From Candidatus Spongiisocius sp. (lineage in GTDB: Bacteria > Actinomycetota > Acidimicrobiia > Spongiisociales > Spongiisociaceae): 64,000 nt of DNA. The notes under the pieces were generated by a model that was given only the letters and a program-made list of their open reading frames with translations, was not told where the DNA came from and did no database searches. Where the stretch lies: assembly GCA_965203035.1 (NCBI GenBank), contig OZ241858.1:2201437-2265436 (forward strand), in the 5' to 3' direction. Below are positions 7,583-47,610 of the stretch, piece by piece (position 1 is the first letter of the stretch; each line of letters opens with the position of its first letter). The translations under genes were made by a program, and so were the position numbers.

Positions 7583-8572
7583 GTGAATGCCCTTACCCAC
7601 CTCAAGGGTCCCTCCAGACCCGGTCCGGGCGACCGGAAAGTTCTGCTGGACCGGGCCGGTGAGCTGTTCGCCGGCGCCGAGATCGAGCCGACCGACATCA
7701 TCCGGATCGACGTGCCGGGCCGGGGCCAGTCGGTAGGGGGAGAGGGCCTGCTGAGGCCCGAGCTCGAACCGATCGTGCCCGCCCTGCAGTCGGGATCCCT
7801 GTTCGGCGGGCGTACGGGTGTCATGTTGATGGACGCTCAGCTACTCCAGTCCGATGAGGCTGCCGTCGTGACCGATCTACTCGCTCACCAGGCCGGTGGG
7901 ATCCCGCCGGTGGTGCTGGTCACGAGCGGAAAGCTCCCGTCCCCGCTCGCAGCCCATGTGAAGAGGAACGCCGAGGTGATAACGGTCCGCAAGCTGGCCG
8001 ACCGTGACGTCGCCCTGTGGGTGCGCGACGCCGCCCGCCGGCGCGGGTTACGCCTCGGTTCGGACGCCGCTCAGGCCCTTGTCCAGCGCTTCGGATCCGA
8101 CGTCGGGGCCATCGACCACGCTCTCGACCAACTGAGCATTTCCGGGGGGCCGGTAACCGAACAGGTCATCCTGGACCGCTTCCGCAACCGGCCGGACCAG
8201 CCCCTTTGGAAGCTGACCGACGCCCTCGGGAAGGGGGCCGCAGAGGAAGCCATCCGCCGGCTGCATGATCTCCTCACCCACGGGCACCCCCTCGTTCTTG
8301 TGGCGACCATCGAGAACGACCTCCGGAAAAGGGCGCTGGCCGCGGCCGCGCCGGATATCGCCACGTTCGCGGAGTGGATCGGCGGTAAGCCCGGCGCCTA
8401 CCCGACCCGGAAGGCATGGCAGGCAGGACGGGCCATGTCAAGGGAGGATCTGAACAGGGCCGTAGATGCTGTTCGCAGGGCCGATGCCACGCTGAAAGGT
8501 ATGCCGCCAGAGACCCACCTACCGACCTTGGAGCGCTTGGTGGCCGCCCTCTGCATCTGGTACCGCGGTTAG
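7583..8572 (+). CDS. holA: DNA polymerase III delta subunit
   Basis: Conserved position downstream of comEC. Length and overall similarity fit the HolA family. The stop codon TAG is the first unit of the heptamer array. Confidence 0.7.
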   Translation: MNALTHLKGPSRPGPGDRKVLLDRAGELFAGAEIEPTDIIRIDVPGRGQSVGGEGLLRPELEPIVPALQSGSLFGGRTGVMLMDAQLLQSDEAAVVTDLLAHQAGGIPPVVLVTSGKLPSPLAAHVKRNAEVITVRKLADRDVALWVRDAARRRGLRLGSDAAQALVQRFGSDVGAIDHALDQLSISGGPVTEQVILDRFRNRPDQPLWKLTDALGKGAAEEAIRRLHDLLTHGHPLVLVATIENDLRKRALAAAAPDIATFAEWIGGKPGAYPTRKAWQAGRAMSREDLNRAVDAVRRADATLKGMPPETHLPTLERLVAALCIWYRG

Positions 8573-8639
8573 TTGTTAGTTGTTAGTTGTTAGTTGTTAG
8601 TTGTTAGTTGTTCCGATGTAACTAACGACTACAAACTAG
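8570..8639. repeat. Heptamer hairpin element A: (TAGTTGT)x6 direct array (8570-8611), loop TCCGATGT, then three inverted degenerate copies (AACTAAC GACTACA AACTAG, 8621-8639).
   Basis: Read directly from the sequence. An AT-rich island at the convergent holA/rpsT junction. The stop codons of both genes lie inside the element. Confidence 0.9.
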
Positions 8640-8889
8640 AAACGAGACGGGCCAGGCGCGCCTTCCGGCGGTTGGCGGTGTTCTTCTTGAGCACACCTTT
8701 CGCCACAGCCTGATCGATACGCTTCTGGGCGCTTCGCAAGGCCTGCTCGGTTGCCTCACGGTCACCGCTCTCGGCGGCTTCCTCCACCTGGCGCGCCCGG
8801 GTCTTCAGCTCCGAACGGATCGACCTGTTGCGGACCCTGCTGGCAATGGCCTGCCTGTCGCGCTTTTCCTGGGACTTGGTGTGTGGCAT
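8629..8889 (-). CDS. rpsT: 30S ribosomal protein S20
   Basis: MPHTKSQEKRDRQAIASRVRNRS...KNTANRRKARLARLVSSL, about 86 aa and S20-like. The start is the internal Met at 8889; the ORF-track N-extension is rejected. Confidence 0.9.
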   Translation of the reverse strand: MPHTKSQEKRDRQAIASRVRNRSIRSELKTRARQVEEAAESGDREATEQALRSAQKRIDQAVAKGVLKKNTANRRKARLARLVSSL

Positions 8890-10092: not shown

Positions 10093-11151
10093 GTGGCCGA
10101 CTACTACCGCACCCTGGACGTTGAGCGCGACGCGTCCCGAGACGAGATCAAGCGGGCCTTCCGGCGGCTGGCCAGGGAGTCCCACCCCGACGCCAATCCC
10201 GATGACCCGACGGCCGAGGCTCGTTTCCGCCAGGTTGCGGAGGCCTACGAGGTTCTGTCCGATCCCGAGCGGCGAGCCCGGTACGACCGTGGGGAGACTC
10301 TCGATCCGGGCGGATTCTTCCAGGGTGCGAGTTCGCTCGACGACCTGCTGCGGTCGGTCTTCGGCGACAGCGGCCTCTTCGGAACCGTTACCCGTGAACC
10401 ACGGGTCAATCGAGGGCGGGACGTTCGGGTCAACGTGGTGCTCACCTTGGAGGAGGCGGCCTTCGGGGTCGAGAAACCAGTCGTGTTCCGTACGGCGCTG
10501 ACCTGCGAATCGTGTGCGGGCTCGGGCTCCGGGGACGGCGCCGGTCTCCGGGCGTGCCGGATCTGCGGAGGGAGCGGCCAGGTGAGGATGGCCCGGCGCA
10601 GCGTGTTCGGCTCATTGATGACCTTGACCACGTGCCGGGCCTGCCAGGGCGACGGCTCGGTGCTGGCCGATCCGTGCGGGAGTTGCCGCGGAGAAGGAAC
10701 CAGGGAGGGCGAGAAAACCGTCCGGGTCGAGATTCCACCCGGAGTGGAGGAAGGTAACCGACTCCGGCTTCCCGCCAGGGGGGAAGCCGGTCGCCGCGGT
10801 GCCCGTGCGGGCGACCTGTACCTCGATCTGATCATCCAGCCGCACTCCGTCTTCGAGCGTGACGGAGACGACCTGGTCAGTGACGTGGAGGTGGGTATCG
10901 TCGCCGCGACGCTGGGAACCCAGGTAGAGGTGCCGCTCCTCGACGGCGGGACCCATCGGATCAAAGTCCCGGCCGGATCCCAGTACGGAGAGGTCATCCG
11001 GGTGCCGGGCAAGGGGATCACCCGGCTTCGCAGCTCGCGTCGAGGTGACCTCTACCTTCGCGTCAAGGTGGTCGTGCCCACCAGGCTCAGCCGCTCCCAG
11101 CGCAAGCTCCTGCGCCAGTTCGCCGATGACGCCGGTGAAGAACTCCTGTGA
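10093..11151 (+). CDS. dnaJ: Chaperone DnaJ (J-domain, CxxCxGxG zinc finger, C-terminal domain)
   Basis: J-domain HPD motif (ESHPDANPDD) and four CxxCxG repeats. Confidence 0.9.
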   Translation: MADYYRTLDVERDASRDEIKRAFRRLARESHPDANPDDPTAEARFRQVAEAYEVLSDPERRARYDRGETLDPGGFFQGASSLDDLLRSVFGDSGLFGTVTREPRVNRGRDVRVNVVLTLEEAAFGVEKPVVFRTALTCESCAGSGSGDGAGLRACRICGGSGQVRMARRSVFGSLMTLTTCRACQGDGSVLADPCGSCRGEGTREGEKTVRVEIPPGVEEGNRLRLPARGEAGRRGARAGDLYLDLIIQPHSVFERDGDDLVSDVEVGIVAATLGTQVEVPLLDGGTHRIKVPAGSQYGEVIRVPGKGITRLRSSRRGDLYLRVKVVVPTRLSRSQRKLLRQFADDAGEELL

Positions 11152-11264
11152 GCAACCTCACCGCCATCCTGCAGGAAGTGCACGGCGCACCTCATCGATA
11201 GGCTGACCGTTCGTGGTATCCTGACCAGGCCTTTGGAGCTCCGCACCATCGCCCTGTCGCGCTA

Positions 11265-12242
11265 ATGCCTCCCGTCGCGCCGCCTGCCCGAACCCTGCAC
11301 GTGCCCGGTATCAGCCTGATGCTGGACCTGCTCGGCGAACGGGATTCCCACCTCCGGCTGGTGGAGTCGGCATACCCTGAAGCCGTAATCGTGGCGCGTG
11401 GCGACGAGATCGTGTTCCAGGGCGAGGAGCGGTCGGCCCGCCGGGCCCACAAAGTGGTGGAGGAGCTGCTGATGCTGGTACAGCGGGGTATGAGCCTGGA
11501 GCGCGAGGGCGTGCACCGCGTCATCGAGATGGTCAATGACTCGGTGCCGTCTCCCAGCGGTGTCCTCGGGGAGACCATCGAGGTAGCCCGGGGGAAGATC
11601 GTCCGACCCAAGACGGTGGGGCAACTCCGCTATGTAGAGGCGATCCGCCGATCGACCCTCGTTTTCGGAATCGGACCGGCCGGGACCGGCAAGACCTATC
11701 TCGCCATGGCGGCCGCGACCGAGTCCCTGATCACCGGCAAGGTCAAGCGGATCGTCCTCACCAGACCGGCGGTCGAGGCCGGGGAGAGGCTCGGCTTCCT
11801 GCCCGGCGATCTGGAAGCGAAGTTCAACCCCTACCTACGACCGCTGTACGACGCCCTGTACGAGATGCTGGGGCCTGACGACGTAATGGGATACATGGAG
11901 AGGGGAACGATCGAGATCGCCCCGCTGGCCTACATGCGAGGCCGCACGCTCAACGATTCGATCGTGGTGCTGGACGAGGCGCAGAACACGTCCCGGGCAC
12001 AGATGAAGATGTTCCTCACCCGGCTGGGATTCAACTCGAAGATGATCATCACAGGCGACGCCACCCAGGTCGATCTGCCGCGCGATCGCCTCTCGGGGAT
12101 GGTCCACGCCCGGACCATCCTGGAGGAGGTGCGCGACGTGGCGGTGGTCCACCTGAGCGCCGCCGATGTGGTTCGCCACCGTCTAGTGGCAGAGATCGTG
12201 GAAGCTTACGAGGCAGCGGACAGCCGGTCGCCCGACCGATGA
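11265..12242 (+). CDS. phoH: PhoH-family ATPase
   Basis: Walker A (GPAGTGKTYLAMAAA) and PhoH signature (RLGFLPGDLEAKFNPYLRPLYDAL). Confidence 0.9.
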   Translation: MPPVAPPARTLHVPGISLMLDLLGERDSHLRLVESAYPEAVIVARGDEIVFQGEERSARRAHKVVEELLMLVQRGMSLEREGVHRVIEMVNDSVPSPSGVLGETIEVARGKIVRPKTVGQLRYVEAIRRSTLVFGIGPAGTGKTYLAMAAATESLITGKVKRIVLTRPAVEAGERLGFLPGDLEAKFNPYLRPLYDALYEMLGPDDVMGYMERGTIEIAPLAYMRGRTLNDSIVVLDEAQNTSRAQMKMFLTRLGFNSKMIITGDATQVDLPRDRLSGMVHARTILEEVRDVAVVHLSAADVVRHRLVAEIVEAYEAADSRSPDR

Positions 12243-14839
12243 CACCTCGCGTCAAGTCCATCATCACCGGGGTGATCCTGGTGGCGACCGCGGGTCTCTC
12301 CTGGGCCGGCATGCTGATCGAGCAGCAGTTCACCACTGTCCAGGTGGTCCCGGGGGAGCCGGCGCCTCAGGCCTTCGTGGCGGAGTCCCCGATCGAGATC
12401 GAGGATTCCGCCGCCACCGAGATCGCCCGCCAGGCGGCCCGGGATTCGGTAAACCCGGTCTACGGGCGGCACGAGGACATCGACGCCTTGGTGATCAACG
12501 ACATCCAGGCATTTTTCCGGTCGCTCAGAGTCGCCACCGTGGATCAGGGTGCCCGCCCCTTGCCGGTGGTTACCACCACTAGCACGGTGGTCCCACCGGC
12601 GGCGGCCACCACGACCGTTGCCACGACCGTTGACTCAGTGGCCGCTCCCGGCACGGAGGCGGAACCGCCCACGGTTTCCGAGGAGGCGCCCACGCCGACC
12701 ACCCTGCCCGCGGCCGTGGCCGCGACGGCGGGTGTCACCGGGCGGGTGTTCATCGACACCGACGCCAACGGGTTCTTCAGCCTGGGCGTGGATCACGGAC
12801 TGGGCGAGGTGAGGGTGGTGGCCTACGACACGACCGGCACCCGCTTCGAAACGGTCACCTTCTCCGACGGCCGGTACTCGCTCGGGCGGATGGCTCCAGG
12901 GCCCGCGGCCGTCCTCATAGACACCGACACCGTTCCTGACCGGTTGACCGGACCGGAGCGGTTTCTCTACCAGGATGTCGAACTCGTGGAAGGCCAGGAG
13001 ACATCGACCATCCACATTCCGCTCCGGCTCGCGGTGACACCTAAGGACACCCAGTTGGCCAGCCTCCAGGCGAGCGGCCTGCTGCTGTCCGATAGTGCGG
13101 TTTCCCTTCTAGTGGACATCGCCACGGGGGACGTCCTGCGCGAGATACTGGGTGATGAGGCGTGGCTGCTCTCTATCGAACGCGAGACCCTCCTGCTGGC
13201 GACCGAGGCCCTGAATACCGACGGCGGGATCCTCAGCGAGGAGCTTCGCGACGTCCAGATACAGTTCCGCTCGACCCCTAGGTTCGTGCAGCTCCCTGAC
13301 GCCGATTCGGCGGTCTGGCAACAAGTCTCCCAGGTGGTTCCCGAAGTTGCCACCGTGTTCCTGGCTGCCAACAAGACGGTCGACGCCGTGGCCACGGAGA
13401 GCCTCCGGGAGGAGGAGGCCGCTGGAGTGGCCTCCTTGACCACCCGGTTCGAAGCGGGTGAAGTGATCATCGACGAGGGTCAGGAGGTGACGGAGGAGAT
13501 CGAGGCCGCCCTGTCCGAGGCGGGATTGCTCGGGGCGGCGGCACCCCGTTACCTGGCGCTGGCCGCAGCGGTGGCCATCGTGGTCGGGCTGCCGGCGCTC
13601 TACCTGTACCGGTTCCAGTCGAGTGTGTGGAAGTCGATGCGCCGCATGTCCCTGTTCGGCCTGCTGGTGGTGCTCGCGGCGGTGTCCGCCCGCGGGGCGG
13701 CCGTGTTGGCGGCCGGGGGAGACGGTGCGATCGGGTTCCTGATGCCGGCGGCCGCCTTCGGCCTGATGACCGCCATCCTCTTCGATGCGCGGACCGCGGT
13801 GTTGATGGCGGTGGTGGTGGGGTCTATGACGGCCATCGCCACCACCGATCCGGCCTACACGCTGTACGCCGGCCTGTCGGTCCTGGTCCCGATCACGTTC
13901 GTATCGGCCATCTCGGCGCGGCGCGACCTGCGGAGGGCGGGCCTGTACATCATGGCGATGTGCGGGGCCTTCGCAGCTCTGATCGCCTGGTTCTTCCCCC
14001 AGGACATCAGCATTCTCCGGGCGGCCGCGTTCGCGGTCGGAGGCGGCGCCATCTCCTGGCTGGTCGGGAGTTCGCTACTCTCCGTTTTCGAGATCGTGTT
14101 CGACATCACAACGTCTTTGCGCCTCCTGGACCTGACCGATCGCAACCATCCTGCGCTCCGCCTCCTCGAGGAGAAGGCCATCGGCTCCTTCAACCACTCC
14201 CTGATGGTGGGCACGCTGGCCGATCGCGCGGCCCGGGCGGTGGGGGCCAACCCCTTGCTGGCCCGAGCCGCCGCCTACTACCACGATCTCGGCAAGACCG
14301 AGCACCCGCAGTTCTTCATCGAGAACCAATTCGGCATCCAGAACCCCCACGACGAGATGCCCCCGTTGCAGTCCGCCGAGGTGCTGCGCCGTCATGTGCT
14401 CGACGGGCTTAGCCTGGCCCGCAAGTTCAGGATTCCCGGAGATGTGGCCGAGGCCGTCATCACCCATCATGGCGACGGCATCATGCATTTCTTCTACGAC
14501 AAGGCCCGGAAGGAGTACGGCGCCGATGCCGTGGACCGGGAGGATTACCGTCACGCCGGGCGCAAACCGGTCAAGAAGGAAATGGCCATTGTGATGATGG
14601 CCGACTCGGTCGAAGGCGCCTGCCGGGCGGTCTTCCAGGTGGAGGAGCCGACGCCCGAGCGTATCGAGCGGTTGGTCGAGAAGGTGGTGGGAGAGAAGGT
14701 GACCGACGGCCAGCTCTCTGCTTCGGATGTGACGCTTGGTGACCTCACCAAGGTGAAGGAAGCCATGGTCGAGGCGCTGGTAGGGCATTACCACCAGCGC
14801 ATCCCCTACCCGAACTTTCCCGAAGGAGAACCGGTTTGA
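12239..14839 (+). CDS. 7TM-HD membrane phosphohydrolase (YqfF/7TMR-HDED family) with an extended T/P/A-rich extracellular region
   Basis: HD domain (HSLMVGTLADRAA...AYYHDLGK) after a 7-TM block. Conserved phoH-yqfF-ybeY-era neighbourhood. Confidence 0.85.
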   Translation: MTPRVKSIITGVILVATAGLSWAGMLIEQQFTTVQVVPGEPAPQAFVAESPIEIEDSAATEIARQAARDSVNPVYGRHEDIDALVINDIQAFFRSLRVATVDQGARPLPVVTTTSTVVPPAAATTTVATTVDSVAAPGTEAEPPTVSEEAPTPTTLPAAVAATAGVTGRVFIDTDANGFFSLGVDHGLGEVRVVAYDTTGTRFETVTFSDGRYSLGRMAPGPAAVLIDTDTVPDRLTGPERFLYQDVELVEGQETSTIHIPLRLAVTPKDTQLASLQASGLLLSDSAVSLLVDIATGDVLREILGDEAWLLSIERETLLLATEALNTDGGILSEELRDVQIQFRSTPRFVQLPDADSAVWQQVSQVVPEVATVFLAANKTVDAVATESLREEEAAGVASLTTRFEAGEVIIDEGQEVTEEIEAALSEAGLLGAAAPRYLALAAAVAIVVGLPALYLYRFQSSVWKSMRRMSLFGLLVVLAAVSARGAAVLAAGGDGAIGFLMPAAAFGLMTAILFDARTAVLMAVVVGSMTAIATTDPAYTLYAGLSVLVPITFVSAISARRDLRRAGLYIMAMCGAFAALIAWFFPQDISILRAAAFAVGGGAISWLVGSSLLSVFEIVFDITTSLRLLDLTDRNHPALRLLEEKAIGSFNHSLMVGTLADRAARAVGANPLLARAAAYYHDLGKTEHPQFFIENQFGIQNPHDEMPPLQSAEVLRRHVLDGLSLARKFRIPGDVAEAVITHHGDGIMHFFYDKARKEYGADAVDREDYRHAGRKPVKKEMAIVMMADSVEGACRAVFQVEEPTPERIERLVEKVVGEKVTDGQLSASDVTLGDLTKVKEAMVEALVGHYHQRIPYPNFPEGEPV

Positions 14840-17614: not shown

Positions 17615-19009
17615 TTGGTGCGATTCCGGATCGAGAAGGACTCCATGGGGGAGGTGCAGGTGCCGTCGGATGCCCTGTACGGCGCCTCGACCCGGCGGGC
17701 ACTCGAGAACTTCCCGATATCCGACCGGAGGTTCGGCCGCTCGTTCATCTGGGCGCTCGGCCTGATCAAGGGCTCGGCCGCCCAGATGGCCGGGGCGGCG
17801 GGTCATCTGCCCGGTGAGATCGCCGAGGCGGTTTCCCAGGCGTCCGACGAGGTCATGGCCGGAGACTGGGACGAGCAGTTCGTGCTCGATGTCTTCCAGA
17901 CCGGGTCCGGTACCTCCACCAATACCAACGCCAACGAGGTGATCGCCAACCGGGCAGCCCAGCTGCTCGGAGGGTCGATCGGGGACCGGTCGGTCCACCC
18001 CAACGATCACGTGAACTTCGGCCAGTCCTCGAACGACGTGATCCCCACCGCCATACACCTGGCGGCTGCACGGGCTACCAGAGAGGACCTGGTGCCGGCA
18101 CTGGAGGCGCTGGCGGGGTCACTGGGGGAGCGGGCCGCCGACTTCTCGGGCGTGGTCAAGTCCGGCCGCACTCACCTCATGGACGCCACGCCGGTGACGC
18201 TGGGCCAGGAGTTCTCCTCGTACGCGGCCCAGATCGACAAGGGCGTCGAGCGCCTGGAGGCTGTGTTGCCGGGCCTCGACGAGCTCGCCCTGGGAGGCAC
18301 CGCAGTCGGCACGGGGATCAACGCACCCCCCGGGTTCGCGGCGTCGGTGGTCGGGCTGATGGCCACGAGGACCGGTTACCCGCTCCGCGAGGCCGACAAC
18401 CACTTCGAGGCCCAGGCCGCGAAGGATGCGGTCGTGATGGCTTCGGGCGCCCTGAAGACCGTCGCCGTGTCCCTGTTCAAGATCGCCAACGACCTGCGCT
18501 GGCTCTCGTCCGGACCCCGTACGGGACTGGGGGAGATCAGGCTTCCCGCCCTCCAGCCGGGATCCTCGATCATGCCCGGCAAGGTCAATCCGGTCATTCC
18601 CGAGATGGTCTGCCAGGTTGCCGCGCAGGTGATCGGAAACGACTCGGCCATCGCCTGGGGTGGCGCCAACGGCAATCTGGAACTCAACGTGATGATGCCG
18701 ATGATGGCCCACAACCTCCTGGACTCGATCGGGCTGCTGGCAAGCGCCTCGTCCACGTTCCGGGAGCGTTGTGTCGACGGGATAGAGGCGGATGCGGACC
18801 GGGCTCGCCGGCTGGTGGAGAGCAACCTGATCGTGGTCACCGCCCTCAACCCGAGGATCGGTTACGACAGGGCCGCCGAAGTGGCCAAGGAGGCCTACGC
18901 CTCGGGCCGCACCATCCGTGACGTCGTGCTCGACATGGGCCTGATGGAGCCGGAGGAGTTGGACGAGGTGCTGGACATCAAGCGGATGACCGAAGGCGGG
19001 ATTCTCTAG
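17615..19009 (+). CDS. Aspartate ammonia-lyase / class II fumarate hydratase family lyase. Motifs lean towards AspA.
   Basis: [11 protein letters not shown] signature loop. The VNPVIPE and FVLDVFQ motifs are closer to AspA; [11 protein letters not shown] resembles FumC. Confidence 0.85.
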
Positions 19010-19017
19010 TTTCAACG

Positions 19018-19179
19018 TGGTTGGTCTGTGTTTCGGCGGCGTGCTCTGAACCGCCATCGACGCCTCTGGCTGCGTCCTGCCTCCTCAACGTACCCTGCGG
19101 GTACGCCTTCGTCAGCAAATCCTTGCCATAGACGCCGCTGCCGGCGCCAGACCCCACCGCCGCGCCACAGACCAACCAC
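19018..19179. repeat. 162-bp element bounded by perfect 14-bp inverted repeats (GTGGTTGGTCTGTG ... CACAGACCAACCAC), with several internal short hairpins
   Basis: Read directly from the sequence. Located in the convergent aspA/sufU intergenic region. Confidence 0.6.
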
Positions 19180-19224
19180 GGGACGCGCGATTGCTGACGA
19201 CTGCGCATAACGTGAACACGGCCA

Positions 19225-19273
19225 AGTTGCTAGTTGTTCCATTGGCTAGAAACTATTGACTATCAACTACCAA
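19225..19273. repeat. Heptamer hairpin element B: AGTTGCT AGTTGTT, loop CCATTGG, then four inverted degenerate copies (CTAGAAA CTATTGA CTATCAA CTACCAA).
   Basis: Same architecture and loop context as element A (TAGTTGTTCC...CTAGAAAC). The sufU stop codon is embedded. Confidence 0.8.
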
Positions 19274-19724
19274 CAAAGTTGTTAATGGCCTGTTCCAGGG
19301 TAGTCCAGGGCAGGTTGGCGCACTTGATCCGGACCGGGAACTTACGGACTCCCTGAAGTGCCTCGAGATCACCGAGTACCGCACCGGGCCGGCTCGGATC
19401 GAGCCCGGGGTCTCCGGCGCCGTCGATGCTCATCATCCCCTTGAACCGGCCGGTGACTGTTCGTATCGTCTCGATGCTCCTGCCCTTCACGGCGTCGCCC
19501 ATCATCGAACCCGATGCCTGGGATATCGAACACCCGTGACCGGTGACCCCGATCGCGGTGACGTGGTCCCCCTCGATCAGCAATTCGACCCGGACCTCGT
19601 CACCACACAGCGGATTGTTGCCGTCGGCTACCGCGTTGGCCCGCGCCAGGGCCTTCCGGTTACGGGGGCTCCGGTAGTGGTCGAGGATTACCTCACGGTA
19701 GAGATCTTCAAGCGCCATGAGCAT
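19263..19724 (-). CDS. sufU: SUF-system Fe-S cluster scaffold SufU/IscU-family protein
   Basis: Conserved Cys motifs (NPLCGDEV, GHGCSIS). Confidence 0.85.
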   Translation of the reverse strand: MLMALEDLYREVILDHYRSPRNRKALARANAVADGNNPLCGDEVRVELLIEGDHVTAIGVTGHGCSISQASGSMMGDAVKGRSIETIRTVTGRFKGMMSIDGAGDPGLDPSRPGAVLGDLEALQGVRKFPVRIKCANLPWTTLEQAINNFVGS

Positions 19725-19792
19725 CCAACGATAGAGATCGCAGCCGGTTCGCGGCGATTACCGGATCGTCGGCTGTCGGCAATCCCGGCCTC

Positions 19793-21028
19793 TCAGGCGC
19801 CGTAGAGTCCGAATATGCGGCGGGCCACGCCGAGGGCGTCCACCAGCGCGTCCACGTCCTCGGCCACGTTGTAGACATAGAACGAGGCCCGGGTCGTGGC
19901 GATCAGGCCCAGGCTCCGGAGCAAGGGCTTGGCGCAGTGGTGCCCGGCTCGGACCGCCACTCCTTCCTGGTCGAGGATGGTGGCCACGTCGTGAGCGTGG
20001 ATGCCCTCGAGGTCGAAGCTGATCGCCCCGCCCCGGTCAACGGTGTCTGCCGGGCCTTGGACAGAAAGGCCGGGAACCTCGGCAAGTCGCTCCAGGGCGT
20101 AGCCGGTGAGATCCCGGTCATGTTCCACAACGGCATGCATCCCGATGGCGGACAGGTAGTCCACCGCCGCCCCCAACCCGATCGCCTCCACGAACGGCGG
20201 CGTTCCGGCCTCGAACTTGTGGGGCACTTCCGCCCAGTCCGACTCGTGCAGGCGGACATCACGGATCATCTCGCCCCCGCCCTCGGCGGGCTCCATGCCC
20301 TCCAGCAGTTCCCTCCGGCCCCACAGGACCCCGATGCCGGTCGGCCCGAGCATCTTGTGGCCCGAGAATCCGAGGAAGTCTGCTCCGAGGGTCTGGACGT
20401 CCACAGGGGCGTGGGGGACCAGTTGGGCGCCGTCGACCAGGAGCACCGCGCCGACCTCGTGAGCCAGACCGGCGATCTCGTCCACCGGAGGCATGGTGCC
20501 CAACACGTTGGACATTCCCGACACCGCCACGACCTTGACCCGCTCGTCGAACCGCTCGCGAGCGCTCTCCATATCGAGCCGGTAGTCGTCGGTCAGCTCC
20601 ATGTAGCACAGTTCCGCCCCGGTGTGGCGGGCGATGATGTGCCAGGGCACGATATTGGCGTGATGCTCCATCACGCTGGTCAGGATCCGGTCACCGGGTT
20701 TCAGGATGTTGAGACCCCATCCGTACGCGAAGAGGTTCATCGCCGCGGTGGCGCTTCGGGTGAAGATGATCTCCTCGTCGCATGCGGCGTTCAGGAAGAC
20801 GGCCACCTTGTGGCGGGCCTCCTCGTAGGCCTCGGTGGCCTCCTGCGAAAGGGTGTAGGCGCCGCGGTGGACGTTGGCATAGGAGTTCCGGTAGACATCC
20901 ATCATCGCGTCTAGCACCTGAACCGGCTTCTGGGAGCTCGCTGCGGAGTCGAGAAAAGCCATCCTGCGACCGTTGATCCTCCGCTCCAGGATCGGAAAGT
21001 CGCTGCGTATGGCGTCCGTGTCCATCAT
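19793..21028 (-). CDS. sufS: Cysteine desulfurase SufS (class V aminotransferase)
   Basis: PLP-binding motif (SGHKMLGPTG) and the C-terminal catalytic Cys region (RAGHHCAKPL). Confidence 0.9.
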   Translation of the reverse strand: MMDTDAIRSDFPILERRINGRRMAFLDSAASSQKPVQVLDAMMDVYRNSYANVHRGAYTLSQEATEAYEEARHKVAVFLNAACDEEIIFTRSATAAMNLFAYGWGLNILKPGDRILTSVMEHHANIVPWHIIARHTGAELCYMELTDDYRLDMESARERFDERVKVVAVSGMSNVLGTMPPVDEIAGLAHEVGAVLLVDGAQLVPHAPVDVQTLGADFLGFSGHKMLGPTGIGVLWGRRELLEGMEPAEGGGEMIRDVRLHESDWAEVPHKFEAGTPPFVEAIGLGAAVDYLSAIGMHAVVEHDRDLTGYALERLAEVPGLSVQGPADTVDRGGAISFDLEGIHAHDVATILDQEGVAVRAGHHCAKPLLRSLGLIATTRASFYVYNVAEDVDALVDALGVARRIFGLYGA

Positions 21029-21783
21029 GGCGCCGGGGCGGATCGGAAGGCCTCGTATCCTTCCTCCTCGAGCCGGCGGGCCAGCTCGGCGCCACCGGAT
21101 CTCACGATCCGGCCATCCACCAGTACGTGGACGTGGTCGGGCGTGATGTAGTCGAGCAGCCGCTGGTAATGGGTGATCACCACGAACCCGCGCTCGGCCC
21201 CGGCCAGGCGGTTCACCCCTTCGGCCACCACCTGCAGCGCGTCGATGTCGAGCCCCGAGTCCGTCTCGTCCATGATGGCCAGTTCCGGCTCGAGCACCGC
21301 CATCTGCAGGACCTCGTTGCGCTTGCGCTCGCCTCCGGAGAACCCCTGGTTCACGTAGCGGTCGGCGAAGGATGCGTCCATTCCGAGCGACTCCATCGCG
21401 TCCATGACCCGCAACCGCAACTCCAGCACGGTGTAATCGACACCGGTCCGGTTGCTGAGCGCGGTGCGCAGGAAGTTGACGACCGATACGCCCGGTATCT
21501 CCTCCGGATACTGGAAGGCGAGGAACATCCCCATGTTGGCCCGGGTGGGCGGGTCGGCATCGGTGATGTCCTCCCCCTTGAAAGAGACGGTCCCGGACGT
21601 GACCTCGTAACCCGGATGTCCCATCAGGACCTTGGCCAGGGTGGACTTCCCGGAGCCGTTGGGCCCCATGATGGCGTGGACCTCGCCCCGGCAGGTCGCC
21701 AGGTCGACGCCTTGCAGGATGGGTTGCCCATCGACAGACGCATGCAGGCCTTCAACGGCCAGCAGGGGGCCAGGGTCGGTCAA
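21025..21783 (-). CDS. sufC: Fe-S cluster assembly ATPase SufC
   Basis: Walker A (GPNGSGKST), signature (FSGGERKRNEVLQMAVLEP), Walker B (IMDETDSGLD). The start is probably TTG at 21783; the ORF-track extension is rejected. Confidence 0.85.
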   Translation of the reverse strand: MTDPGPLLAVEGLHASVDGQPILQGVDLATCRGEVHAIMGPNGSGKSTLAKVLMGHPGYEVTSGTVSFKGEDITDADPPTRANMGMFLAFQYPEEIPGVSVVNFLRTALSNRTGVDYTVLELRLRVMDAMESLGMDASFADRYVNQGFSGGERKRNEVLQMAVLEPELAIMDETDSGLDIDALQVVAEGVNRLAGAERGFVVITHYQRLLDYITPDHVHVLVDGRIVRSGGAELARRLEEEGYEAFRSAPAP

Positions 21784-22094
21784 GATCGGATCTCCTGGAG
21801 AGCGAAGCGAGTGCGCGCCCCAGGCTACCCGTCCCGCTGCGGTGTCGGTAAACCAATGGACGGTTACCACCGCCGTCCACCTGAAGGGTGCCGGGAAATG
21901 TCGTCCTGCCGACGCCCAAGACTTGATTTCGGTCAGCGGAAGCCCGGCCGGATCAAGCCGTCCCCATCGACGCCCCCTCCCGGTACTGTCGACCCAAGAT
22001 CACGACTGCGAGCCGCAGCCCGGGAACCGATCGGCGGTCCCGGTACGTCATAGGGAGGAATTGGCTGATCAGATGTCCCTATGGAAGGAGCCGA

Positions 22095-24232
22095 GGATGA
22101 GAAGGCACGCATCTTGGTTGGTGGGCTTGGCCCTCATTGCCGGGGCTTGCGCTCCCGACCCGGCCACGGCGCCCCCGCCGGACGCATCGATCGTAGGCAC
22201 CACCGAACATCGGGAGCCGACGGTGGCGACGGCCGGCGGTTCTATAGCCTCGACCACCGTTCTCGACAACGCGGTGGGCCTGTTCGCCTCGGCACTGGTG
22301 GAGTTCGACTCCTGCGATGCGTTCCTCGGCCACGTCAAGGCGGAAGCAATGGAGCGCGTCGGACCCTACGGCCTGCCCGGTGCGGGCTATTTCGGCCCGG
22401 AGCTCTGGAACGGCGAGATTCTGGAAGAGGCCATGGTCGAGGAGGCGGCCGCCGACGCGTCTGACACCGCGACGGCAGCATCCTCCCCGGCACCGCAGGC
22501 CGGAGTGGATTACTCGACGACCAACGTCCAGGAGATCGGCGTCGACGAACCCGACATCGTCAAGACCGACGGAAATCGGATCCTCGTGCTGGCTCAGGGC
22601 ATCCTGTACTACGTCGACGTGTCGTCAGGTCGCCCTGACCTCCTGGGATGGTTGGATCTCTGGTCCCGGGATTCCCGGGAGGGTGAGGACGCGGAGTTCT
22701 GGCGTCACGAGATGTTCCTCGGCGCCGGCAGCGCGTTGCTGATTGCCGGCGGGCGCGGGGCGGACGGAGATCTCACCCAGGTGGTCCAGGTCGATCTGTC
22801 CGACCCCGAGAACCTGGCCGTGACGGCCACTCTCACGGTGGAGGGCAGGTACGTGTCGGCCCGCCTGGTGGGGGAACGGGCCAGCCTGGTCATCTCCTCC
22901 CGGCCGCACGAGCGGCTCCCGTGGGTATATCCCGGATCGAGGTCGGCCGAGCCGAGGGCCGAGCTGAGCAACCGGATGACCATCGAGGAGTCGACTCTGG
23001 AGGACTGGGCCCCGGGCTATGTCCGCGAGGGCACCGGCGGCGTCTCCGAAGGCCTGTTCCTCGACTGCGCGTCGGCATTCGCCCCCAAGGAGTTCTCCGG
23101 GTTCGACTTCCTGTCCGTGCTGAGCCTGGACATCGCCGGCGGTGTCGAGATCGACGCGGTATCCACCGTGATGTCAGGAGGCGACACGATCTACGCCTCG
23201 TCAACCGACCTCTACGTGGCCACCGAGCGCTGGGTTGATTGGTCCGTCCTCGATGAGGAGGAGGCGATCAGCGAAGCCGAGACCATCCGCACCTATATCC
23301 ATCAATTCGACATCGCCGGGGCGGACGGGGCCGAGTATCTCGCGAGCGGATCGGTGAACGGATACCTCCTGAACCAGTTCGCCATGTCAGAGCACGACGG
23401 CCATCTGCGGGTGGCGTCCACCAACGAGCCGCCCTGGGGTTGGTGGTTCGACGAGAACCGACCTTCCGTGAGCCGGGTTGACGTCCTGGCGAGGGATGGC
23501 CGCCAACTCCGGGTCGTCGGGTCAGTGGGCGGCCTCGGTGAGGGCGAGCGGATCTTCGCCGTCCGGTTCATCGGCGAGGTCGGGTACGTGGTCACCTTCC
23601 GCCAGACCGATCCGCTGTACACCATCGACCTGTCCGACCCAGAAGACCCCCGGGTGGTGGGCGAGCTCAAGATCCTCGGCTACTCCGCCTACCTGCACCC
23701 GATCGGAGAGGGGCTCCTGCTGGGAATCGGTCAGGACGCTGATGAGCAGGGCAGGACGCGCGGCGCCCAGGTCTCGGTGTTCGACGTGTCCGATCTGGCC
23801 AACCCGATTCGTATCCATCAGTTCACCCTCGAGGACTCGTTCTCCGAGGTTGAGTGGGATCACCGAGCTTTCCTGTACTGGGCCCCGGAGGAGATAGCCG
23901 TCATGCCGGTCAGCTGGTGGGAGCAGGATGTCCAGTCGGGCTCCTGGGATGGTCGCGCGGGCGCATTCGTCCTGTCGGTCGGCGCCGGAGGCATCCGGCA
24001 GCGGGCGACTATAGAGCACGAGATCAAGAACGCGCGCGGCATCTCCGAGGAGGAACTCCGCTACATGTACTGGTGGCTCCTGCCGATCCGCCGCTCCCTG
24101 GTGGTGGGTGACACCCTCTTTACCCTCTCGGAAGGCGGCCTGCTGGGATCGGACCTGGGGACATTCGAGCCAACCTCCTGGATCGGGTTTCAGATCCCGG
24201 ACTACGGGGTGCCGGAACCCGTCATCTACTGA
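22095..24232 (+). CDS. Secreted lipoprotein with a beta-propeller domain (Beta_propel-like family). Function unknown.
   Basis: Lipobox (LALIAGAC) at the second in-frame ATG, preceded by AAGGAG. Repeated propeller-like blocks. No catalytic motifs recognised. Confidence 0.65.
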
Positions 24233-24256
24233 GGCGGTCCGTCCCTCTTGAACCGA

Positions 24257-24287
24257 GCGCCCTGCGGTCCGCGAGACTGCAGGGCGC
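24257..24287 (+). terminator. GC-rich hairpin (9-bp stem GCGCCCTGC/GCAGGGCGC) downstream of the lipoprotein gene. Candidate intrinsic terminator with a weak U-tract.
   Basis: Perfect inverted repeat read from the sequence. Confidence 0.35.
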
Positions 24288-24340
24288 CCCCTTCCCCCTG
24301 TCCTGATCTCTGCGAACGGCAGGACAGGTAGGATTCCCGG

Positions 24341-24784
24341 ATGCCCTCCGATCCGGTCATCGCACTAGGGGCGGCGCTGATCCTGCTGGTCCTGGCCGCC
24401 GTCGGGGTGGCCGTCCGGATGGGACGCAGAAGCAACCGGGCAGATCGGCAACCCGTCTACGTCATCAACGACGCCATCGACCACGCGGTGGAGCATCTCG
24501 ACCCGGAGGTACTGGACCGGATCCGCCGCGCCGGCGCGCAACGCATCATCGAATGGTCGGTGCACTACCTTCAGGGTCTGGCGGTTCCTGCTCGCCGACG
24601 GAGGGGCTTGCGGGTGGTGGCCGGGGGAGAGGGCAACGCCATCGAGTACATCCGCGGCGAGCTGGCAGAAAGAGGATACGATTACACCCCGTCCGACATT
24701 GCCGCGGTACTGGCCGGAGAGGCGACGTACCTGGCGGGCATAGGAGCAATGGGAGAGCGGGTCGAGGAAGGGAACCCTGTATGA
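24341..24784 (+). CDS. Hypothetical membrane-anchored protein (single N-terminal TM)
   Basis: N-terminal TM helix followed by a soluble domain. Stop overlaps the next start (ATGA). Confidence 0.5.
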   Translation: MPSDPVIALGAALILLVLAAVGVAVRMGRRSNRADRQPVYVINDAIDHAVEHLDPEVLDRIRRAGAQRIIEWSVHYLQGLAVPARRRRGLRVVAGGEGNAIEYIRGELAERGYDYTPSDIAAVLAGEATYLAGIGAMGERVEEGNPV

Positions 24785-25071
24785 GGGCACGCTGCGGTCG
24801 CTGCGGCACCGGTTTCGAGGTAATGGCGCCGGGCCGCTACGCCTGTCCGGCCTGCGGTGTCACCAACGAGGTGCGCGGCCCCGCCGGCGGTCCGCCCGGC
24901 GCCGGACCTCGGGCACAGGACATGGCGCCCCCACCCCCTCCGCCCGAGGCCCCCTCCCGGAGAACCCGATGCCGTGCCGCCCAGTGTGGTTTCAGCTTCA
25001 TCGTCGGCGACGTGAACGTGGCGCCCTGCCCGATGTGCGGGACCGAGGTGCGCGTCGGGAGAGGGGTCTGA
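24781..25071 (+). CDS. Small double zinc-ribbon protein (two CxxC...CPxC units separated by a Pro-rich linker)
   Basis: RCGRCGTGF...YACPACG and RCRAAQCGF...PCPMCGT. Translationally coupled to its neighbours. Confidence 0.55.
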   Translation: MRARCGRCGTGFEVMAPGRYACPACGVTNEVRGPAGGPPGAGPRAQDMAPPPPPPEAPSRRTRCRAAQCGFSFIVGDVNVAPCPMCGTEVRVGRGV

Positions 25072-25290
25072 GTGGCCACCGGGACATCCTCGCGCCTATC
25101 CAGATTCGAGAAGAGCCGCTTTATCGGCGCCAGGGACACGATGATCGTCTACGACTGCGACGATGCCGGCCAGTTCGCCCGGCTCGAGGCCCGGCTCGGG
25201 GACGACAACCTGCTGGGTCGCAACCTGATCCAGAGCTTCGCCCCCGACACGCTGGCCGAGGCCCGCAACCGGGGATTTCGTAGTTTGTAG
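25072..25290 (+). CDS. Hypothetical small protein (72 aa, GTG start). Its C-terminal RSL* is encoded by the heptamer array.
   Basis: The ORF directly follows the upstream stop. No recognisable motifs. Confidence 0.3.
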   Translation: MATGTSSRLSRFEKSRFIGARDTMIVYDCDDAGQFARLEARLGDDNLLGRNLIQSFAPDTLAEARNRGFRSL

Positions 25291-25359
25291 TTGCTGGTTT
25301 CCAGTTGGTAGTGGCTACCTGTGCCTAACAACTGACAACTCCCAACTAACAACTAAAGA
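25281..25359. repeat. Heptamer hairpin element C: left array TAGTTTG TAGTTGC TGGTTTC CAGTTGG TAGTGGC, loop TACCTGTGC, right inverted array CTAACAA CTGACAA CTCCCAA CTAACAA CTAAAGA.
   Basis: Read directly from the sequence. Stop codons of the convergent ORFs on both strands lie inside the arrays. Confidence 0.85.
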
Positions 25360-25445
25360 ACTCCGAGCAGGAACCAGGCACCCACCCCCACCAGTATCAC
25401 CATGGCGGTGATCAACGCCGCGATGATCAGGTACCTGGTAGGCAT
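25353..25445 (-). CDS. Possible 30-aa single-TM hydrophobic peptide (MPTRYLIIAALITAMVILVGVGAWFLLGVL)
   Basis: Manual minus-strand translation. Too short for the ORF track. Its stop TAG is the first unit of the minus-strand heptamer array. The SD is weak. Confidence 0.25.
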   Translation of the reverse strand: MPTRYLIIAALITAMVILVGVGAWFLLGVL

Positions 25446-25530
25446 GCCGGGAGGGTAACCATGAGTTTGCCCGCTCCGTCCGCACCGGCTAATTGTCAGC
25501 GGCGGGTCGCCACTAGGCTGGGCGCTTCCC

Positions 25531-26934
25531 TTGGCGAACCGGAGAGTCGCATCTGTGTATGACGTAATCGTGATCGGCGGTGGCCCGGGCGGCTACGGCG
25601 CCGCCCTGTTCGCGCACAACTTCGGACTATCTGTGGCTCTGGTCGAGAAGGACGAGGTGGGCGGCACCTGCCTGCTGCGCGGATGCATACCGGCCAAGAG
25701 TTGGCTCCAATCGGCCGAGGTGTATTCGACGGTTCGCTCCGCGGGGGAGTTCGGAGTGGTGATCGGGGAGGCATCCTTCGACTGGCCGAAGGCGCTGGCG
25801 CGCAAGGACCGCATCGTGAACGGCCTGGTACGGGGCCTGTCCGGCCTGCTGAGGATGCGCAAGGTCGAGGTCGTCAAGGGCGCGGGCCGGATGGCCGGAC
25901 CGGGAAGGGTCGAGGTCGACCAGGACGGATCAACCCGTGTTCTGGAAGGCCGGAGCGTGATACTCGCCACCGGATCGGCTCCGATCGAGCTACCGGCCTT
26001 TCCCTACGACGGAGTGAGGATCGTCAGCTCCGATCATGCACTCGACTGGACCGAGCGGCCCGACCGGGTGGGAATAATCGGGGGCGGGATCGTGGGATGC
26101 GAGTTCGCCAGCCTGCTGGCCGACGTCGGGAGCCAGGTGGTGGTCTTCGAGATGCTGGACCAGATCATCCCCGGCTTCGAGCCGGCCGCCGCGCGCGAGC
26201 TCCAGAAGCAACTGAGGCGCAAGAAGGTGCGGTTCTTCCTCGAGGCGGCGGCGAGGGTCGACAACTCCGGCGACCATCCCGTTCTCCTGGGCGGGACCGG
26301 CGCCGCCGAGCAGGGAATCGAGGTTGACGCAGTGCTGGTGGCGGTGGGGCGACGTCCGGTCACCGAGAACCTGGGGCTGGATACGGTGCGGGCCGAGACC
26401 GACCGGGGCTTCGTGATTGCCGATCGGGAAACCATGCAGACCGCCGAGCCGGGTGTGTTCGCGGTCGGCGACATCGTGGCCGGCACTCCCGGTCTTGCCC
26501 ATGGCGCCTTCGCCGAGGCCATCGCCGCCGTCACCTTCATAGCCACCGGGAGACCCCGTCCGGTCGACTACCAGGCCCTCCCGAGTGTCGTCTACACCCA
26601 CCCTGAGGTGGCGTCCGTGGGACTCACCTCGGTCGATGCGGCCGCCGGGGGAATCGAGGTCGAGGAGCACGACCACTCCTTCGTAGGCGTGGGCCGGGCC
26701 CGCATCATCGGGAAGAACCAGGGATTCGTGAAGATCCTGAACGAGGTCGGTGGGCCTATCGTGGGCGCCACCGTGGTGGGACCGCAGGCCGGCGAGATGA
26801 TCCACGAGTTGATGTACGCGGTGGGCTGGGAGGCCCTTCCGGAGGAGATGGCGGCGTTCATACATGCCCATCCCACCCTGAGCGAGGCGATAGGAGAGAC
26901 CCTGCTGTCCTCGTCCGGTCTTTCCCTTCACTGA
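25531..26934 (+). CDS. lpd: Dihydrolipoyl dehydrogenase (E3)
   Basis: FAD motif (GGGPGGYGAA), redox-active disulfide (GGTCLLRGCIPAK), NAD motif. Confidence 0.9.
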   Translation: MANRRVASVYDVIVIGGGPGGYGAALFAHNFGLSVALVEKDEVGGTCLLRGCIPAKSWLQSAEVYSTVRSAGEFGVVIGEASFDWPKALARKDRIVNGLVRGLSGLLRMRKVEVVKGAGRMAGPGRVEVDQDGSTRVLEGRSVILATGSAPIELPAFPYDGVRIVSSDHALDWTERPDRVGIIGGGIVGCEFASLLADVGSQVVVFEMLDQIIPGFEPAAARELQKQLRRKKVRFFLEAAARVDNSGDHPVLLGGTGAAEQGIEVDAVLVAVGRRPVTENLGLDTVRAETDRGFVIADRETMQTAEPGVFAVGDIVAGTPGLAHGAFAEAIAAVTFIATGRPRPVDYQALPSVVYTHPEVASVGLTSVDAAAGGIEVEEHDHSFVGVGRARIIGKNQGFVKILNEVGGPIVGATVVGPQAGEMIHELMYAVGWEALPEEMAAFIHAHPTLSEAIGETLLSSSGLSLH

Positions 26935-33007: not shown

Positions 33008-33039
33008 AAAAAAAGACCCGGCCCCAAATGGGCCGGGTG
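33008..33039 (-). terminator. Rho-independent terminator on the minus strand: 10-bp GC stem (GACCCGGCCC/GGGCCGGGTC), loop ATTTG, then a T7 tract.
   Basis: The plus strand shows AAAAAAA GACCCGGCCC caaat GGGCCGGGT. No annotated minus-strand gene lies upstream of it. Confidence 0.55.
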
Positions 33040-33510
33040 GGTAACCGCCCTCTAACGCTGGCGCGTCAGGGGCGAAGCGCTGGGATCGAATGTAACACGA
33101 GTCAAGGTCCAGAGACAAGGAGCAGGTTGAGTCACCAGTCTGGGGGACGTCGATACGGTCCTACCGTCTCCGGGAGTTGACATGAGCGGAAATCGTCTTC
33201 CGTGAGCCGGTACCACCAATGGTTGCCGACACCCTCATCCGGATCTCCCTGTAGATCCCCAGCTGTCGGGTTACGGCGCGGGTGCCGGTCGGACGGGAAC
33301 CACGCACGAAATGCTGAATCCGACACTTTCGGAACCGTTCGCACTACGTTTTCGGAATCATTTGCCACTACGTTTCCGGAGTCTGCCCTCTCCGGCAAGG
33401 CAACTGTGGACCGTGGCCGGACATGTCTGGAGGTGCGCTGTTCCGGATCTCCTGCGACCGTGCGAAGATAGGTCCGCGTTGAACGGTCCAGCCAACCCAG
33501 GTGTGGAGAT

Positions 33511-47452: not shown

Positions 47453-47456
47453 CGGG

Positions 47457-47610
47457 CAGTGGCCAGTGGCCGGTTGCCAGTGGCCAGAGGCGACTTGGTC
47501 TAATCAATTCCCTTGTGCCCTTTCCTCTGTTCGATGGCATGTGTCATTCCCTTCCTGGGTTACAACATCACTGACCACTGACCACTGACCACTGACCACT
47601 GACCACTGCC
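47457..47610. repeat. Heptamer element D: left array (CAGTGGC)x5 with two degenerate units (47457-47491), a 77-nt AT-richer spacer, and right inverted array (CACTGAC)x5 plus CACTGCC (47569-47610). It ends 16 nt before the polA ATG.
   Basis: Read directly from the sequence. The reverse complement of the right array is (CAGTGGT)n, so the two arrays are mutually inverted. Confidence 0.9.

Follow-up and report, generated by a model that had tools for sequence, protein, structure and literature searches.

Heptanucleotide repeats in bacteria and the locus considered here

Tandem arrays of seven-nucleotide units have been known in bacteria for decades without acquiring an accepted origin or function, whether as the short tandemly repeated repetitive (STRR) sequences, as long simple sequence repeats (LSSR), or as TAACTGA repeats. 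The cyanobacterial STRR heptamers CCCCAGT, TTGGTCA, and CAACAGT were reportedly described by Mazel et al. in 1990. Here, we consider element C, a pair of opposed heptamer arrays lying between two convergent small genes in 64,000 nucleotides of a Candidatus Spongiisocius genome (contig OZ241858.1, positions 2,201,437 to 2,265,436; this whole stretch is called the window below). Element C belongs with the STRR-like heptamer repeats; what is new is the opposed arrangement in a high-GC sponge symbiont, the existence of a composite form, and the capture of repeat units as stop codons. It is one copy of a dispersed, rapidly turning-over family of self-complementary heptamer arrays that sit at gene ends and have been captured there as stop and C-terminal codons. 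Elements of this kind (consensus about YAGTKGN), some built around a core of roughly 80 nt and others lacking one, occupy the DNA just 3' of genes in Spongiisocius-like Acidimicrobiia.

The likeness to STRR is close in general organization: tandem head-to-tail units of 7 nt, intergenic and dispersed in many copies, with a copy number that varies between strains and a function that is unexplained. One unit of the composite form, GTGGTCA, even agrees with the STRR unit TTGGTCA at 6 of 7 positions. In the stricter cyanobacterial sense the elements fall outside the class, as the host is a 67%-GC actinobacterium (Acidimicrobiia) and the units (TAGTTGN, CAGTGGC) are different ones. Unlike STRR, moreover, the elements of the window are opposed pairs that form one hairpin, lie on stop codons, and include a composite form with a conserved core.

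Several other described systems invite comparison. The REP, BIME, and REPIN sequences of proteobacteria are short hairpin-forming intergenic repeats, often found between convergent genes and present in hundreds of copies. REP sequences are thought to stabilize mRNA 3' ends or to attenuate read-through, a REPIN consists of two inverted copies that form one hairpin, and the arms are unique palindromes of 20-40 nt mobilized by RAYT transposases. Element C shares with them the intergenic position between convergent genes and the capacity to form a hairpin, but its arms are arrays of 7-nt units rather than unique palindromes. The Correia elements of Neisseria, the BOX elements of pneumococcus (which have a variable-copy module), and the miniature inverted-repeat transposable elements (MITEs) are small and non-autonomous. 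The composite form is like them in its length of about 155 nt, its inverted termini and core, its occurrence, in one orientation or the other, at a number of unrelated sites, and its long RNA hairpin; unlike theirs, its termini are heptamer arrays instead of fixed inverted repeats, and neither a target-site duplication nor a parent insertion sequence (IS) was found for it. Intrinsic terminators have a GC-rich uninterrupted stem followed by a T-tract, a form that element C does not take. CRISPR arrays alternate direct repeats of 23-50 nt with unique spacers of similar length, whereas the units here are contiguous, 7 nt long, and without spacers. The regulator HutP binds UAG-N4 triplets, its site being two sets of three UAG spaced 7 nt; UAG recurs at the same spacing in the arms of these elements, although units without UAG replace the others at the same sites. 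In Rfam searches, only two tRNAs reach the gathering score in the window, and 25200-25480 and 47440-47640 give no match at E values up to 1. A literature search on the name "Spongiisocius" returned no papers.

Heptanucleotides are held to be the most abundant class of long simple sequence repeats in many bacteria, with slippage given as the cause and Actinobacteria among the LSSR-rich genomes (Mrazek, Guo and Shah 2007, via PMC4679880). The elements studied here share the over-representation of period 7 and the presumed engine, slippage; they differ in that LSSR, as relayed in that secondary account, are a statistical class from which neither inverted pairing nor gene-end placement nor a common core would be predicted. 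TAACTGA direct repeats occur in intergenic DNA of marine Beggiatoaceae, Cyanobacteria, and Bacteroidetes (MacGregor 2015, PMC4679880); one Beggiatoaceae genome has 169 sets of direct repeats and one inverted set, mostly immediately 5' of start codons, and a post-transcriptional regulator has been proposed for them (PMC4679880). Resemblance lies in the right-arm units CAACTGA and CAACTAA and the composite-form unit CCACTGA, in the intergenic occurrence across phyla, and in composite right arrays that end just upstream of start codons; the arrays of the window, in contrast, are paired in inverted orientation at the 3' ends of genes, and element C has a stop codon on each side. In Nostoc, deleting heptamer repeats changed reporter expression (bioRxiv 10.1101/2022.06.06.494920). 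This is the only experimental hint at a function of heptamer repeats that we found.

Element C: units and predicted fold

Element C is built of two arms of tandem heptamers in opposite orientation around a short loop (Table 1). A first-pass annotation, made from the sequence alone, had given each arm five units. This holds for the left arm, where all five are TAGTTGN-like; the right arm has four good inverse units and a degenerate fifth, TAGGCAC. Because this innermost right unit is degenerate, the apical region can reach to about 25325, depending on the register. The units CAGTTGG and TAGTGGC are indeed both present in the left array, as that annotation had it, whereas the arrays stop at 25355 rather than at the end first assigned, 25359, the surplus being flanking AAAG.

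The arms are recovered as an inverted repeat by a repeat search (25281-25311 and 25325-25355; 31 nt, 74% complementary, 13 nt apart), and Tandem Repeats Finder (TRF) reports a period-7 tandem array over the right arm at 25325-25356. GC content falls to 52-54% in 100-nt intervals spanning the element, against 66.8% for the whole window. On the plus strand, the RNA is predicted to form a single long hairpin in which helices of 4-6 bp are separated by internal loops at 7-nt intervals (-25.7 kcal/mol, z = -3.55; 1 of 200 shuffles was equally good); the minus strand gives z = -1.48.

Four such elements, A to D, are found in the 64 kb, all intergenic and flanked by genes without a common function. 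In each copy, the two arrays face each other and pair to give a stem whose helices, 5-6 bp long, are broken every 7 nt. The two-unit pattern YAGTKGNYAGTKG, with at most one mismatch, has 21 matches in the window against 1.6 expected; none of 100 shuffles reached this number, the largest giving 5. All 21 matches lie inside elements A-D, those on the plus strand in left arms and those on the minus strand in right arms. Period-7 self-similarity marks four segments of the window, all of them in these elements, while periods 5, 8, and 9 mark none, and TRF reports further period-7 arrays at 8568-8612, 47457-47491, and 47569-47612. The same element C, with one single-nucleotide polymorphism (SNP), is present on an independently assembled short-read contig (Logan contig L001; L numbers designate loci from other sources throughout), so element C is no artefact of assembly.

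Two small genes that end in the element

The arrays are shared by two convergent small open reading frames (ORFs), as first proposed, and conservation indicates that both are genuine genes, each taking its TAG stop from element C. The 72-aa gene ends R-S-L-stop, encoded CGT AGT TTG TAG: the first unit of the left arm and the TAG of the second encode its last two codons (S, L) and its stop. The observation that the same string ends rpsT was also borne out, as the ten bases of TAGTTTGTAG occur exactly twice in the window, here and on the minus strand at 8629-8638, where they end rpsT (...L-V-S-S-L-stop; Pfam S20, 1.2e-24).

The 72-aa protein has 732 homologues at E <= 0.001, mostly of 67-72 aa, the nearest named one being from Candidatus Spongiisocius (Acidimicrobiia, sponge-associated), which gives the window its taxonomic position; the exact protein is on record only on one Logan contig of 1.3 kb. 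Its core is invariant as far as PDTLAEARNRGFR (...AEARNRGFR), and the tail beyond is variable. Here, that tail (SL-stop) is dictated by element C. Homologues with adjoining arrays have the tails SL, SV, or LASC, which are TAGTTGN units translated in different frames, and homologues without an adjoining array have unrelated tails. Invariant motifs of the protein include RDTMxVYDCDD and PDxLAEARNRGF. Neither this protein nor the 30-aa one has a family in Pfam or NCBIfam; a weak, sub-threshold match between the 72-aa protein and RNA polymerase subunit K (E = 0.0045; 17 bits, where the cutoff is 57) was set aside. The gene closes a conserved cluster of three (24341-25290); the two before it encode a 147-aa protein without a family and a protein of about 96 aa with a double zinc ribbon. 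In these Acidimicrobiia, the cluster always lies upstream of lpdA-E2-lipB/lipA.

On the other strand, the 30-aa ORF stops at the TAG (25353-25355) of the outermost right-arm unit, which agrees with its earlier description as ending at the opposite array. The ORF is found at the same position in nine genomes, including the distant L127 and genomes without the repeat element, and its variable sites among the nine, counted by codon position 1, 2, and 3, number 6, 3, and 21, a distribution characteristic of a translated gene under purifying selection. Gene callers have annotated it in only one relative examined. The gene is divergent from lpdA.

Gene ends at elements A, B, and D

Comparable arrangements are seen at elements A and B. 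At element A, a holA-like gene stops at the first unit's TAG (8570-8572), and rpsT ends within the right arm (stop at 8629-8631); both rpsT and the 72-aa gene continue for two codons (S-L) into an element until they meet the following TAG. In relatives, too, the first unit can supply the TAG stop of the upstream gene, as it does for fumC in most of them and for adh_short in two (L124 and L129). At element B, the stop of a NifU-like gene is the TGA (19263-19265) that forms the last three bases of the unit TAGTTGA; a reading of this stop as TAG is wrong. The first unit of element B, TAGTTTC (19007-19013), is detached from the others, contains the stop of fumC, and is divided from the remainder of the element by a MITE-like insert.

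That insert is a palindromic sequence of about 165 nt (19016-19180) with perfect 15-nt terminal inverted repeats, CGTGGTTGGTCTGTG and CACAGACCAACCACG. It is also present in L122 and partly in L130 and absent from the other relatives; a second copy in L122 lies at 19158-19324 (89% over 168 nt). A 64-aa minus-strand ORF running through it is probably spurious.

Element D is the composite form and lies between tRNA-Leu(CAA) (47369-47453) and the start codon of polA (47627). Its arrays pair around a core, with z = -3.5 on the plus strand and -6.4 on the minus strand.

Placement at gene ends is visible in a wider sample. In a listed sample of 100 TAGTTGN arrays from many phyla, sense ORFs of 80 aa or more stop in the first three units 29 times, against 8 in the antisense control, and array families of reversed polarity in metagenomes adjoin ORF ends on the left in 11 of 17 cases and on the right in 8 of 17. 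Where the annotated loci of the relatives have divergent gaps, no array was seen in them.

Table 1. Positions of the heptamer elements of the window and of the two genes that end in element C
Feature	Position	Strand	Content
Element C, left arm	25281..25315	+	TAGTTTG TAGTTGC TGGTTTC CAGTTGG TAGTGGC (read from sequence)
Element C, loop	25316..25320		TACCT
Element C, right arm	25321..25355	-	Minus-strand reading TAGTTGT TAGTTGG GAGTTGT CAGTTGT TAGGCAC
72-aa gene	25072..25290	+	Last of the 147-aa / Zn-ribbon / 72-aa cluster; conserved small protein
30-aa gene	25353..25445	-	MPTRYLIIAALITAMVILVGVGAWFLLGVL; predicted single-pass hydrophobic peptide
Element A	8570..8645		(TAGTTGT)x6, 9-nt loop, inverse units TAGTTAC TAGTCGT TAGTTTG TCGTTTC
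Element B	19224..19276		AAGTTGC TAGTTGT, loop, inverse units TAGTTTC TAGTCAA TAGTTGA TTGTTGG
Element D, composite form	47457..47610	+	Left array, 77-nt core, right array
Element D, left array	47457..47491		CAGTGGC CAGTGGC CGGTTGC CAGTGGC CAGAGGC
Element D, core	47492..47568		77 nt
Element D, right array	47569..47610		(CACTGAC)x5 CACTGCC

Turnover at orthologous sites

Relatives share the gene order fumC, convergent NifU-like gene, and, further downstream, the beta-propeller, 147-aa, Zn-ribbon, and 72-aa genes, followed by the convergent 30-aa gene, lpdA, and E2. This synteny around the element permits a comparison site by site. At the site of element C, the TAGTTGN hairpins of the window and of L001, L130, and L131 are close relatives of one another, distinguished by SNPs and a single unit; the hairpin of L122 is shorter, at about 4+3 units, and L123 and L126 have divergent versions. 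In L129, the site is occupied by the composite form, in which about 80 nt of spacer separate TAGTGGC/CAGTGGC units from (CCACTGA)x6. L124, L127, and L128 have no array there, and only 10 nt lie between the two stop codons of L124.

Turnover like that of site C is also seen at sites B, E, and F, and relatives have elements at further sites (E, F, and G). At sites B and E, relatives switch between the TAGTTGN type and the CAGTGGC/CGGTGGC type. Site E, after the beta-propeller gene, has no array in the window or in L128, and other relatives carry heptamer arrays there; the window instead has an ordinary 13-bp GC-rich hairpin at this site (24257-24287, GCGCCCTGCGGTC...GACTGCAGGGCGC).

Pairing is often retained through these changes. 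Orthologous and paralogous copies fold at z values of -2.9 to -6.5 despite differing sequences (L131, L126, L124-B, L126-B, L128-B, and L129-F), while some orthologous hairpins have decayed (z = -1.2 and -1.9). The window pair CAGTTGG/CAACTGA is TAGTTTG/CAACTAA in L131, a change on both arms, and the SNP that separates L001 from the window is uncompensated; these two cases are compatible with correction and with selection alike.

Orthologous elements are present in several assemblies from different projects. In L130, runs of N (scaffold gaps) at 10276-10288 and 4069-4075 fall exactly inside orthologous heptamer arrays; repeats of this kind break short-read assemblies. In more distant relatives, other insertions have entered the interval between the small-gene pair and lpdA, apparently a hotspot for them: in L127 a five-gene island that includes a McrB-like AAA protein (10346-13130), and in L128 an IS encoding DDE_Tnp_1 and DUF4096 domains (10447-11202).

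The composite form and the question of a single family

Element D aligns over its full length with the site C element of L129, and it also aligns with an inverted copy at site B of L129 and with the site E copies of L122, L130, and L131. The core thus aligns full length at four independent sites, once inverted. The copies are only about 66% identical; conserved blocks are GCGAC..., TAATCA, and GTTACAAC, the last adjoining the right array. Copies that align at unrelated sites and have core blocks in common argue for a dispersed composite element with inverted termini around a conserved core. No target-site duplication is recognizable in the flanks of these copies. The ordinary MITE-like element of this genome, with its 15-nt terminal inverted repeats, looks quite different.

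It had been suggested that the TAGTTGN units of element C and the CAGTGGC units of element D form one family with a consensus of about YAGTKGN, an idea that was to fall if more copies revealed no relationship. More copies were examined, and they support a single loose family. The two types replace one another at sites B, C, and E; the site E element of L123 is a hybrid in which TAGTTGG arrays surround a D-like core; and single arrays in other phyla mix the units (TAGTGGA/TAGTGGG giving way to TAGTTGG in L006, TAGTTGG with TAGTGGC in L065). The units can be placed in a series of rising GC content, from TAGTTGT, TAGTTGC, and TAGTGGC to CAGTGGC and CGGTGGC. Among the many heptamer repeats, YAGTKGN is a single family.

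Distribution across phyla and the generality of period 7

Among the matches listed for a three-unit TAGTTGN pattern in species-representative genomes, Cyanobacteria contribute most, the rest coming from Bacteroidota, Acidobacteriota, Planctomycetota, Kiritimatiellae, a metagenome-assembled genome of Actinomycetota, and others; exact arrays are common in these matches in Calothrix, Rivularia, Stigonema, Microcoleus, and other cyanobacteria. Opposed-array hairpins occur in several high-GC genomes (L066, L067, L076, and L106).

Over all loci compared, arrays of period 7 number 217, against 2 of period 6 and 13 of period 8. An AGT/ACT core is present in 45 of 100 period-7 arrays outside the TAGTTGN type, where 23% would be expected; this is an enrichment and no rule, and a universal YAGT core for heptamer repeats was rejected. 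These counts of arrays and the share of only 45% with AGT/ACT indicate that period 7, not the unit sequence, is what is general.

Polarity is a matter of lineage or family. The TAGTTG arm comes first throughout the clade; among 100 listed genome arrays, the partner arm lies downstream in 11 and upstream in none (again TAGTTG arm first), and viral contigs give 2 forward and 0 reversed. A universal polarity [TAGTTGN]n-loop-[NCAACTA]n was nevertheless rejected, since a scan that counted the reversed arrangement found 27 reversed elements in metagenomes; because such elements exist, the polarity rule is specific to lineages or families. One 66%-GC genome of metagenome sample Ga0190274 has a reversed family, [CAACTAN]n - ACAAGTGAGGAAC... 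- [TAGTTGN]n (L134, L135, L136, L143, L151, and L159), with a conserved loop start and several copies between convergent ORFs. This looks like a separate, similarly organized family. On a phage-like contig from IMG/VR (L133, around 10670-10740), a forward TAGTTGT/CAACTAA hairpin is followed by a T-run, a Shine-Dalgarno-like AGGAGG, and ATG, which places a TAGTTGN-type repeat in a terminator-like context.

Possible origins and roles of element C

With a probability that we put slightly above one half (about 0.55), element C is an unstable self-complementary YAGTKGN heptamer element that evolves by slippage, has been captured for stop codons, and provides a modest, dispensable hairpin at 3' ends. 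Arrays would expand, contract, and homogenize through replication slippage, and the complementarity of the arms would be kept by hairpin-templated correction, by selection for pairing, or by both. New sites may be seeded by the copying of whole elements, at least of the D-type, whose core, recurring as it does at four unrelated sites, suggests that the element disperses as one piece. Genes that run into an element would end within a few codons, as most units carry TAG, and insertion at gene ends would be tolerable for this reason. In both convergent transcripts, the element may fold, immediately beyond the stop codon, as an imperfect hairpin at the 3' terminus, which most likely hinders read-through or 3' exonucleases to a modest degree and would be useful but dispensable.

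A number of observations weigh against this explanation. The RNA role is read from predicted folds rather than from transcripts; the hairpin of element C is AU-rich, broken each 7 nt, and has no T-run on either strand, and a terminator scan of 18500-26500 flagged neither element B nor element C. L124, L127, and L128 are without any strong structure at site C, and the other convergent gaps of the window have no significant hairpin; any function of element C must therefore be dispensable. The GC-rich hairpin at site E is limited evidence that a hairpin is wanted at such gene ends, and the evidence that it is not essential is stronger. The proposal that every convergent gap requires a hairpin was rejected on account of the hairpin-less gaps of the window. 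A three-frame stop cassette was rejected as the reason for the element's existence: on the incoming strand, one of the three frames in the arms of element C is free of stop codons. Three-frame stops do hold for perfect arrays such as element A, and TAGTTG[C/T] arrays have stops on both strands anyway. In element D, the asymmetry of G.U against C.A favors the antisense strand and so is a misfit with simple selection on the sense RNA. As for dispersal, a profile of the D-type core (nhmmer) found no copies beyond the six sequences behind the model, and no target-site duplication, transposase, or RAYT was identified, the last not having been searched for. Finally, the sample of the clade comes to about 250 kb of sequence, much of it orthologous.

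Arrays might instead have arisen by purely local slippage, from stop codons on a 7-nt register and with neither dispersal nor function, so that the inverted layout would be two arrays growing toward each other from convergent TAG stops. Polymerase slippage has been given as the cause of the heptanucleotide excess in many bacteria (Mrazek 2007, as relayed in PMC4679880), period-7 arrays of many unrelated units exist, copy number varies among relatives, and arrays often start exactly at a TAG stop. Two independent growths would, however, give neither complementary arms nor one unit family everywhere; at the co-directional sites E, F, and D, the right arm has no stop codon to seed it; and the hybrid element of L123 and a D-type with a conserved 77-nt core at four unrelated sites in both orientations are out of keeping with local growth, which we consider unlikely as the whole explanation. 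It is rather unlikely, too, that element C is a dedicated bidirectional intrinsic terminator maintained by selection, its heptamer make-up being incidental. Such a role would suit a location between convergent stop codons, the significant plus-strand hairpin, the recurrence of hairpins at the orthologous site in several relatives, the conventional GC-rich hairpin at site E where arrays are absent, and the T-run after the array hairpin of the phage contig L133. It sits badly with an AU-rich, broken, and unflagged stem lacking a T-tract in a genome that has a canonical terminator at 33015-33038, with a minus-strand fold of only z = -1.48 and decayed orthologues (z = -1.2 and -1.9), and with the absence of strong structure from site C in L124, L127, and L128 and of hairpins from other convergent gaps of the window.

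Could the arrays be multivalent binding sites, with one motif per 7 nt for a protein acting on RNA (a HutP-like or TAACTGA-type regulator) or on DNA, the elements together marking a regulon? UAG recurs every 7 nt in TAGTTGN arms, and the right array of the D-type ends 15-20 nt upstream of a start codon (that of polA or, in L122, of the 147-aa gene), a position that matches that of the Beggiatoaceae TAACTGA repeats, with CAACTGA and TAACTGA agreeing at 6 of 7 bases; the change in Nostoc reporter expression on heptamer-repeat deletion (bioRxiv 10.1101/2022.06.06.494920) points the same way. Yet units without UAG (CAGTGGC, CGGTGGC) substitute for TAGTTGN at the same sites, some copies have disappeared with nothing in their place, no function is common to the flanking genes, and paired arms would mask single-stranded motifs, all of which makes a binding array very unlikely. 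Chance similarity or misassembly can be set aside for practical purposes: arrays can break assemblies, as the N run inside an orthologous array of L130 attests, but 21 matches against 1.6 expected, with 0 of 100 shuffles reaching that number, an independent contig, and orthologues in the assemblies of several projects speak against it. A bolder version of the preferred explanation, that of an unstable heptamer element captured at stop codons, is decidedly speculative and improbable as it stands: the YAGTKGN hairpins and the cargo-bearing D-type would together form an undescribed class of small mobile or self-renewing element that has heptamer arrays as termini in place of fixed inverted repeats, settles preferentially at stop codons and gene 3' ends, supplies stop codons and a hairpin of its own, and has relatives in Cyanobacteria, Planctomycetota, Acidobacteriota, and Bacteroidota. 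If true, the 35-year-old puzzle of STRR-type repeats would be the footprint of one propagation mechanism.

Implications for annotation and for the study of heptamer repeats

The clade offers a natural experiment in which the same sites hold a TAGTTGN hairpin, a CAGTGGC composite, a hybrid, a GC-rich hairpin, or nothing. Through this polymorphism, effects on transcript 3' ends, read-through between convergent genes, and mRNA stability could be read from sponge metatranscriptomes. For annotation, it matters that real genes, among them that of ribosomal protein S20, owe their C-termini and stop codons to the element, and that it hides a conserved 30-aa peptide, predicted to lie in the membrane, that gene callers usually miss.

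Other repeats and hairpins in the window

A hairpin at 33008-33038 has the shape of a canonical minus-strand terminator, with a stem GACCCGGCCCC/GGGCCGGGT (33015-33038) preceded on the plus strand by AAAAAAA; this genome therefore also uses terminators of the stem-plus-T-tract form. Two intergenic tandem repeats are unrelated to the heptamer family: one at 33327-33380 with a 24-nt unit in 2.3 copies (TTTCGGAACCATTCGCCACTACGT) and one at 58842-58866 with a 13-nt unit in 1.9 copies (AACTTAGTCTATG).

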